Sequence record: PV857777.1
Source: Escherichia phage Ec_O157kw
DNA length: 64,000 nucleotides
Strand: one strand, 5' to 3'
Shown: positions 14,105-14,372 of the stretch, one piece after another
How positions within the stretch are numbered: position 1 is the first letter of the stretch
Layout of the letters: every line of letters starts with the position of its first letter
Made by a program: the position numbers and the translations under genes
The notes under the pieces: generated by a model
What the model was told of the DNA's origin: nothing
Seen by the model: the letters and a program-made list of their open reading frames with translations, nothing else
Databases searched by the model: none

Positions 14105-14301
14105 ATTAACCCAACTAAAGCAAATGCTAAATCTACGAATGTATCAAGAGTAATTACTGGAATATTAACACCATGAGCAATAGCAATTGGTGATAAAACA
14201 AAATTCCAAAGTAAAATTCCTACCATAGCAGAAATAGTAAAAGCTATACGTTTTTTATTACCTTTTATGGCATTAACAAGTGCCATTAATTTTTGTACCA
14301 T
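14101..14301 (-). CDS. hypothetical small membrane protein, antisense to the flanking early genes
   Basis: 66 aa with two hydrophobic segments; strong SD AAGGAGG 4 nt before the ATG; near-consensus late promoter AATAAATA upstream; only non-overlapping ORF in this gap. Confidence 0.4.
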   Translation of the reverse strand: MVQKLMALVNAIKGNKKRIAFTISAMVGILLWNFVLSPIAIAHGVNIPVITLDTFVDLAFALVGLI

Positions 14302-14312
14302 ATGTCCTCCTT

Positions 14313-14338
14313 ATTGCTTTATATATTTATTGTATAAT
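14313..14338 (+). promoter_or_regulatory. MotA-dependent middle promoter for gene 56 (MotA box ATTGCTTTA, -10 TATAAT)
   Basis: Exact MotA-box consensus, 11-nt spacer, TATAAT at 14333-14338. Confidence 0.5.
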
Positions 14339-14372
14339 TAATCTACTAACCCATGAATCGAAAGGAAAAATA

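Follow-up and report, generated by a model that had tools for sequence, protein, structure and literature searches.

A conserved, probably late small membrane-protein gene in the dam-free interval between genes 61 and 56 of a Tequatrovirus

In the T-even phages T4 and T2, the gene for the Dam methyltransferase lies between gene 61, which encodes DNA primase, and gene 56, which encodes dCTPase/dUTPase. In Escherichia phage Ec_O157kw (PV857777.1), of which we analyzed a stretch of 64,000 nucleotides (the window), no such gene is found there, and the short interval contains an open reading frame (ORF) on the opposite strand. A first-pass annotation of the sequence took this arrangement to be an unusual one, in which dam had been lost and a small membrane-protein ORF stood in its place. 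The locus thus raises two questions, whether the interval marks a site of dam loss and whether the antisense ORF is a gene. Our analysis indicates that the interval is very probably the standard T-even 61-56 module, likely in its ancestral form and containing a conserved, probably late small gene, and that this phage carries the commoner, dam-free haplotype rather than a site from which dam was lost. The window is a Tequatrovirus (T4-like) segment read along the direction of early transcription, and the features considered here are listed below in window coordinates.

13076 to 14104, plus strand: gene 61, DNA primase, a 342-residue ORF (PHROG 47, E = 2e-106; 98% amino acid identity with T4 gp61).
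14105 to 14372: interval between genes 61 and 56, 268 bp.
14101 to 14301, minus strand: small membrane-protein gene of 66 codons (PHROG 2024; ortholog of RB32ORF030w).
14267 to 14286, plus strand: weak terminator-like hairpin ATGGCATTAACAAGTGCCAT with a T-run, found by pattern scan downstream of gene 61 and within codons 6 to 12 of the antisense ORF.
14306 to 14312, minus strand: Shine-Dalgarno sequence AAGGAGG, followed after 4 nt by the ATG (14301 to 14299) of the 66-codon gene.
14313 to 14338, plus strand: MotA-dependent middle-promoter-like element of gene 56, made up of a MotA box, ATTGCTTTA, at 14313 to 14321, an 11-nt spacer, and a -10 sequence, TATAAT, at 14333 to 14338.
14324 to 14331, minus strand: putative late-promoter box AATAAATA, the A(-13) variant of TATAAATA, assigned by motif position and conserved as nATAAATA.
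14373 to 14891, plus strand: gene 56, dCTPase/dUTPase (NTP pyrophosphohydrolase; PHROG 173, E = 2e-46; Pfam dUTPase_2).

The layout described in the first-pass annotation was borne out. With gene 61 ending at 14104 and gene 56 beginning at 14373, the gap measures the reported 268 bp, and the minus-strand ORF at 14101 to 14301 agrees in both coordinates and codon count. Its proposed ribosome-binding site (AAGGAGG, 4 nt, ATG) and the AATAAATA box at 14324 to 14331 can be read directly in the sequence, as can the MotA-type promoter assigned to gene 56 in the same gap (ATTGCTTTA, the 11-nt spacer, and TATAAT). The ORF points toward gene 61 and away from gene 56, and a TTAA tetranucleotide forms the overlap of its stop codon with that of gene 61. 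We detected no other elements in the gap by Rfam and repeat scans. The T4 map with which the interval had been compared is right in placing dam between genes 61 and 56, but not in placing dam there alone, since the T4 interval also holds the 66-codon ORF.

The absence of dam between genes 61 and 56 was likewise confirmed and extends to the entire 64-kb window, in which tblastn with T4 Dam found no homolog (best E-value, 4.8). We then surveyed the junction across the genus with a 401-bp query spanning it in the window, and 502 Tequatrovirus records contain the region. The junction was contiguous as in the window, or interrupted by just a homing-endonuclease insert of ~650 bp, in about 322 of the 502 records. 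The match broke in ~180 of the 502 at query position 273, which corresponds to window position 14312, directly after the Shine-Dalgarno sequence of the ORF. A T4-type dam occurred in 184 records (at a protein identity of at least 90% in 182), and the agreement of this number with the ~180 broken junctions indicates that about two thirds of sequenced Tequatroviruses share the window haplotype.

Phages of this haplotype include T6, RB51, RB14, and RB32, in which gene 61, the antisense ORF, and gene 56 follow one another without dam. The same dam-free order was found in Mosigvirus (JK42, p000v, and moskry), Gaprivervirus (VR26 and TH40), and Jiaodavirus (311F). In Marfavirus and Moonvirus, the antisense ORF abuts gene 61, and other plus-strand ORFs, one of them MazG-like, precede gene 56. 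The antisense ORF is absent from Krischvirus, in which genes 61 and 56 are adjacent, and from Karamvirus phage EnA02, in which a MazG-like ORF alone separates them. Thus, the arrangement that the first-pass annotation considered unusual is the rule, with the ORF in this orientation, in Tequatrovirus, Mosigvirus, Gaprivervirus, and Jiaodavirus. The ORF also does not stand there instead of dam, as had been proposed, for it lies alongside dam in T4, T2, and ~180 other phages. The layout is not a new variant either, an outcome that the annotation had allowed for: T6 (AP018814), RB51, RB14, and RB32 show it with the ORF annotated, and the dam-free 61-56 layout with its antisense small gene is already known and annotated in hundreds of genomes.

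In other T4-like genera, Dam homologs occupy genome positions quite different from the 61-56 gap. We also observed a Krischvirus-type Dam, 46% identical to T4 Dam, near 41 kb in MK327935.1 (phage G2494, 41040 to 41834) and in PQ351812.1 (phage SFHK24). With a Krischvirus-type dam at this distant position in a few coliphages of 168 kb, an empty 61-56 gap alone is no proof of a Dam-less genome.

In T4 and T2, the dam cassette (T4 positions 16846 to 17625) occupies the same chromosomal interval, flanked in T4 on one side by the ribosome-binding site and late box of the small ORF and on the other by the middle promoter of gene 56. The cassette is missing from the window phage, as it is from ~64% of Tequatrovirus records, with the breakpoint at window position 14312. 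The presence and the absence of dam are freely combined with the three gene 56 allele types of the genus. With a dam-free majority, dam-free sister genera, and free assortment with gene 56, dam looks like an accessory insertion, and the reading that best suits these sequence comparisons is that of an accessory cassette present as an insertion in part of the genus (about one third of Tequatroviruses, including T4 and T2). The suggested polarity of this insertion rests on parsimony over few outgroup genera, and inserts of other kinds occupy the site in Marfavirus and Moonvirus.

An alternative, proposed in the first-pass annotation, is that dam was recently deleted from a T4/T2-like ancestor and the antisense ORF was left behind. 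That T4 and T2 have dam at exactly this site is in keeping with such an event, and the locus is so highly mosaic that recombination with a dam-free relative is conceivable in this one lineage. However, the dam-free state is that of the majority (~322 of 502 records) and of Mosigvirus, Gaprivervirus, and Jiaodavirus; more broadly, the site is empty of dam in ~64% of Tequatrovirus records and in every sister genus examined, and dam assorts independently of the gene 56 allele, none of which suits the claim of a loss. The window and T4 differ along the whole gene 56 promoter and along the whole segment from the ATAAATA box to the Shine-Dalgarno sequence, so the window junction is no simple product of deletion, and the presence of the ORF with and without dam argues that nothing was replaced. 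We therefore regard a recent deletion as improbable. A simple deletion between short repeats was considered separately and rejected, as dam-plus and dam-minus haplotypes are unlike each other in sequence on either side of the junction.

Sequence divergence around gene 56 is compatible with our preferred reading of dam as an accessory cassette. Gene 56 of the window was found at 95 to 99% identity in 278 records, and its product shares ~76% amino acid identity with T4 gp56 and 69% with T6 gp56. Tequatrovirus thus contains three divergent gene 56 alleles, those of the window, of T4 (~76%), and of T6 and RB14 (69%), while the adjacent gp61 stays at 98%. The simplest reading of these comparisons is that the 61-56 gap is recombination prone and hyperplastic in general and that dam may have entered it in part of the genus. 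The divergence of gene 56 alleles beside an endonuclease slot fits a recombination or homing hotspot.

This slot is occupied in the window by an HNH-type homing endonuclease ORF of 283 residues (14866 to 15717, plus strand; PHROG 655, E = 5e-33), which overlaps the 3' end of gene 56 and precedes soc. The T4 counterpart in the slot before soc is the unrelated GIY-YIG endonuclease SegF, so that different mobile endonucleases are found at one position. On the other side of the primase gene, upstream of 61.1, two consecutive plus-strand ORFs (11917 to 12549 and 12551 to 12907) share the end ...SIDDQIFNAFMN(K/R)G. They represent gene 61.2 and a partial duplicate of it, corresponding to the RB51 annotation RB32ORF033c, "similar to gp61.2."

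The second question that this locus raises is answered by the conservation of the antisense ORF, which is a real gene under purifying selection. We found its 66-residue product by tblastn in 692 phage records, 499 of them at an identity of at least 90% (92 to 100%) and ~190 more at ~50%. The T4 copy (NC_000866.4, 17738 to 17938, plus strand) is 94% identical and is located where 309 bp separate the dam start (17625) from the gene 61 end (17935). This copy is intact, with an ATG start and with AAGGAGG and GATAAATA upstream, but it is unannotated in the T4 RefSeq record. T2 contains both the ORF and dam, and the T4 and T2 ORFs are 92 to 94% identical to that of the window. In RB32, the annotated ORF directly between genes 61 and 56, without dam, is RB32ORF030w ("similar to RB69ORF029w"), and the ORF is likewise annotated in T6, RB51, and RB14. 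Proteins of this RB32ORF030w/RB69ORF029w type (PHROG 2024), which are also annotated in T2 and in hundreds of Tequatrovirus and Mosigvirus genomes, have the same position and the same length and share 92 to 100% identity within Tequatrovirus, and we found no material difference between them and the window protein.

Conservation of the gene reaches well beyond Tequatrovirus. The window protein matched PHROG 2024 over its full length (E = 5.4e-31; residues 2 to 66 against profile positions 1 to 65 of 65), and the PHROG 2024 gene is present in six T4-like genera. The orthologs of Marfavirus, Moonvirus, and Jiaodavirus are only 20 to 25% identical, yet they match PHROG 2024 at E-values of ~1e-25. 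Position is also conserved, with the gene on the opposite strand and abutting the 3' end of gene 61 in the window, T4, T6, RB51, Mosigvirus, Gaprivervirus, Marfavirus, Moonvirus, and Jiaodavirus. Between Tequatrovirus, Mosigvirus, and Gaprivervirus, the product keeps a length of 65 to 66 residues at ~50% identity, with dN of 0.42 to 0.46, dS of 1.2 to 2.5, and dN/dS of 0.17 to 0.35; among close relatives, dN/dS is 0.08 to 0.40. Substitutions are most frequent at third codon positions, followed by first and then second positions, and residues W32, N33, P38, G44, and P48 are invariant across the six genera.

The PHROG 2024 family is narrow, as an exhaustive HMMER search of 1.84 billion representative proteins returned just 7 hits, all of them T-even-like or fragments. 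An IMG/VR scan added 7 further PHROG 2024 loci and no more, and profile searches of Pfam, NCBIfam, PADLOC, and PDB found no relatives of the 66-residue protein, nor did a BFVD fold search yield a lead to its function. We found no paper naming this ORF in the literature searched for RB69ORF029w, RB32ORF030w, T4 ribosome profiling, and T4 start-site maps. The exact ORF sequence of the window was found solely in two Logan contigs. One other Logan-assembly homolog departs from the family almost solely by A-to-V, S-to-F or S-to-L, P-to-L, T-to-I, and H-to-Y replacements; each fits a C-to-T change, a pattern suggestive of an assembly of bisulfite-converted reads and not of a real variant.

Two genomes showed departures from the common form of the gene. 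In the T6 record AP018814.1, ATT replaces the ATG start codon (16228 to 16230), indicating that the small gene may be dispensable or weakly expressed in T6. The depositors of this record annotated a shorter small CDS that begins at Met6, and their annotation is otherwise unreliable, with gene 56 labeled as "ferredoxin" and soc as "terminase small subunit." Gaprivervirus VR26 carries two tandem paralogs of the small gene (2495 to 2692 and 2701 to 2901 of the extracted locus), the second of which is of the type found alone in Klebsiella phage Marfa. The pair hints at two subfamilies that might act together.

The expression signals of the small gene are conserved along with its coding sequence. 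AGGAGG or AAGGAG lies upstream of every ortholog examined, and the nATAAATA motif is kept ~10 to 25 nt before the ATG in dam-minus Tequatrovirus, T4, Mosigvirus, Gaprivervirus, and Jiaodavirus, with diverged flanks. Even between dam-plus and dam-minus Tequatrovirus haplotypes the upstream sequences differ, with nATAAATA and the Shine-Dalgarno sequence retained. In the window, AATAAATA ends 22 nt before the ATG, within the spacing of T4-type late boxes (~20 to 40 nt). The box opens with A in the window and in Mosigvirus, with G in T4, and with C in Gaprivervirus, the T4 GATAAATA and Gaprivervirus CATAAATA forms being rarer late-box variants. Marfa has a perfect TATAAATA, Jiaodavirus has two boxes, and Moon has only TTAAATA. 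Of 50 listed T4 late promoters, 9 have an A at position -13 (Geiduschek and Kassavetis, PMC2988020), and this position is poorly conserved in T4-like phages (Nolan et al., PMC1524935). From these motifs, we infer a gp55-dependent late transcript that would start near 14318 on the minus strand and have a 17-nt leader.

We also examined how WATAAATA is distributed in the window as a whole. The motif occurs 12 times, half as often as the 24 ± 4 copies expected from shuffled sequences, which suggests that spurious copies are selected against. Half of the copies (6 of 12) are followed, 18 to 34 nt downstream, by the ATG of an ORF of at least 66 codons, and these include the boxes of soc and of the 66-codon ORF. 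Examples of WATAAATA sites are those at 15713 to 15720 on the plus strand and at 40324 to 40331, 45164 to 45171, and 50231 to 50238 on the minus strand. The late gene soc of T4 offers a precedent for such an arrangement, as it is embedded in the early region and, like the small gene, has a short late box 18 to 34 nt upstream of its Shine-Dalgarno sequence and ATG amid early and middle genes; its box in the window, TATAAATA at 15713 to 15720, lies downstream of gene 56. Whereas soc shares a strand with its early neighbors, the small gene lies on the opposite strand. T4 has 50 annotated CDS in its first 32 kb, every one of them on the minus strand, and the small gene would be the sole plus-strand gene there. 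A T4 dRNA-seq preprint gives 150 T4 transcription starts, 22 of which are antisense.

The late box shares its location with the promoter of gene 56. MotA-dependent middle promoters have a MotA box with the consensus (a/t)(a/t)(a/t)TGCTT(t/c)A located ~11 to 13 bp upstream of a sigma-70 -10 sequence (TAnnnT). The predicted gene 56 promoter of the window has this combination of MotA box, spacer, and -10 sequence. Its positional counterpart is T4 P(M)16.53, for which a mot-box and -10 sequence are annotated upstream of gene 56 in X01416, and the T4 gene 56 promoter gives the oriA primer transcript according to a RefSeq note. The MotA box and -10 sequence lie at the equivalent place in T4 and the window, and the downstream sequence ATGAAT(T/C)GAAAGGAAAA is conserved; the spacer is 11 nt in the window and 13 nt in P(M)16.53. 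Where dam is absent, the late box of the small gene, on the other strand, falls within this spacer, and the divergent promoters share ~26 bp; in T4, the intervening dam places them ~0.9 kb from each other. The overlapping promoters would presumably be used in turn, the middle promoter of gene 56 first and the late promoter of the small gene after it.

A late transcript from this promoter could have a role of its own at the RNA level. According to this alternative, the transcript from 14318 would continue antisense into gene 61, into 61.1, and farther, and would contribute to shutting off the primase operon late, the peptide being secondary. [quoted passage not shown] An antisense function needs no ORF, however, and the strong purifying selection on the amino acid sequence, the constant length, the invariant residues, and the strong Shine-Dalgarno sequence in six genera indicate that the protein matters. 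We consider it unlikely that the main function lies in the RNA. The two roles are not mutually exclusive, and a secondary antisense effect on gene 61 is possible, but such an effect cannot explain selection at the protein level.

The hairpin at 14267 to 14286 is identical in T4 and folds there as well, but the Mosigvirus and Gaprivervirus orthologs do not contain it. As it is not conserved beyond Tequatrovirus, we dropped the idea that the ORF contains a conserved dual-purpose terminator.

Features of the protein itself point to the membrane. Residues 1 to 18 form a basic amphipathic helix containing KGNKKR. As noted in the first-pass annotation, two hydrophobic segments follow, consisting of residues 19 to 42 and of the C-terminal 19 residues, the latter with a mean Kyte-Doolittle hydropathy of 1.87. 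A short turn (G44...P48) lies between the long hydrophobic helix and the C terminus, and two acidic residues are present in the C terminus of the type found in Tequatrovirus, Mosigvirus, and Gaprivervirus. AlphaFold2 predicted helices at residues 2 to 14, 16 to 42, and 52 to 62 (pLDDT, 76). By the positive-inside rule, the N terminus is probably cytoplasmic. The protein would then have one long transmembrane helix with the invariant residues W32, N33, and P38, and a short C-terminal hydrophobic helix would follow the turn.

With ~690 records, purifying selection, a conserved late box and Shine-Dalgarno sequence, and these hydrophobic segments, the earlier description of the antisense ORF as a genuine, probably late, small membrane-protein gene holds. 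The product is most likely an inner-membrane protein made late, with both late transcription and topology derived from the motifs and predictions above. It may tentatively be viewed as an accessory envelope or lysis-timing factor, a guess that stems from most known late T4 membrane proteins being lysis proteins. A search of the protein and its surroundings for a link to lysis found neither a charged C-terminal tail nor lysis-gene neighbors.

A more specific assignment, as a holin or pinholin-like lysis protein, follows the automatic UniProt name "Holin" given to the ortholog of phage OE5505. Class II holins and pinholins, such as phage 21 S68, have ~65 to 70 residues, two hydrophobic helices, and late expression. 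The small protein resembles pinholins of the phage 21 S68 type in size and hydrophobicity only. It is similarly small, with two hydrophobic segments and late-type signals; Met1 and Met6 flank a lysine in a loosely dual-start-like manner; and "Holin" is the sole name that the protein carries in any source, although as an automatic label on one ortholog. Unlike class II holins, however, it is without a charged C-terminal tail, lysis-cassette context, and sequence or profile similarity to them. There is no hydrophilic charged C-terminal domain, the protein ending in ...FALVGLI with its only charged cluster at the N terminus, and Met6 is not conserved beyond Tequatrovirus. The primase and dCTPase genes, and no endolysin or spanin genes, flank the small gene in the genera examined, and the T-even holin is gpT. 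Furthermore, we obtained no match to a holin family in Pfam or PHROGs, and structural matches to holins in BFVD were insignificant (E > 4). A holin function is thus very unlikely.

That the ORF is spurious and merely lies in conserved noncoding DNA, such as a terminator or origin region, might be suggested by its missing annotation in the T4 reference, the hairpin inside it in Tequatrovirus, and the missing ATG in T6, but this is effectively refuted by the codon evidence and cross-genus residue conservation, given that frame, length, hydrophobic pattern, and motif persist at ~25 to 50% amino acid identity across genera with saturated dS and dN/dS well below 1 and that the hairpin is not conserved beyond Tequatrovirus, and we assign it almost no probability.

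For the phage DNA, the first-pass annotation expected a changed state of GATC methylation from the loss of dam. The DNA of this phage is probably without phage-directed GATC methylation, unless a methylase lies outside the window. The 64-kb window contains 68 GATC sites, in comparison to 221 ± 13 expected from dinucleotide shuffles, a ~3.3-fold underrepresentation, and GATC is, together with CTAG, the most depleted 4-bp palindrome in the window. GATC is likewise depleted in dam-plus T4 (positions 1 to 32000; ratio, 0.40). Its depletion in both phages indicates that it is independent of dam status.

For the T-even phages as a family, dam is a known nonuniversal accessory gene, and the discovery value of the dam-free layout is small. 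The useful residue of this analysis is the small gene on the opposite strand. It is possible, if still a minority expectation, that PHROG 2024 is a late inner-membrane protein that has so far been overlooked and that has a real phenotype in T4 itself, for example in the timing or inhibition of lysis, in head assembly at the membrane, or in escape from a membrane-acting host defense. The T4 RefSeq record omits this conserved gene, so that annotation-based screens, such as CRISPRi-ART (PMC11879866), have not interrogated it, and it is a conserved gene invisible to reference-based T4 screens.
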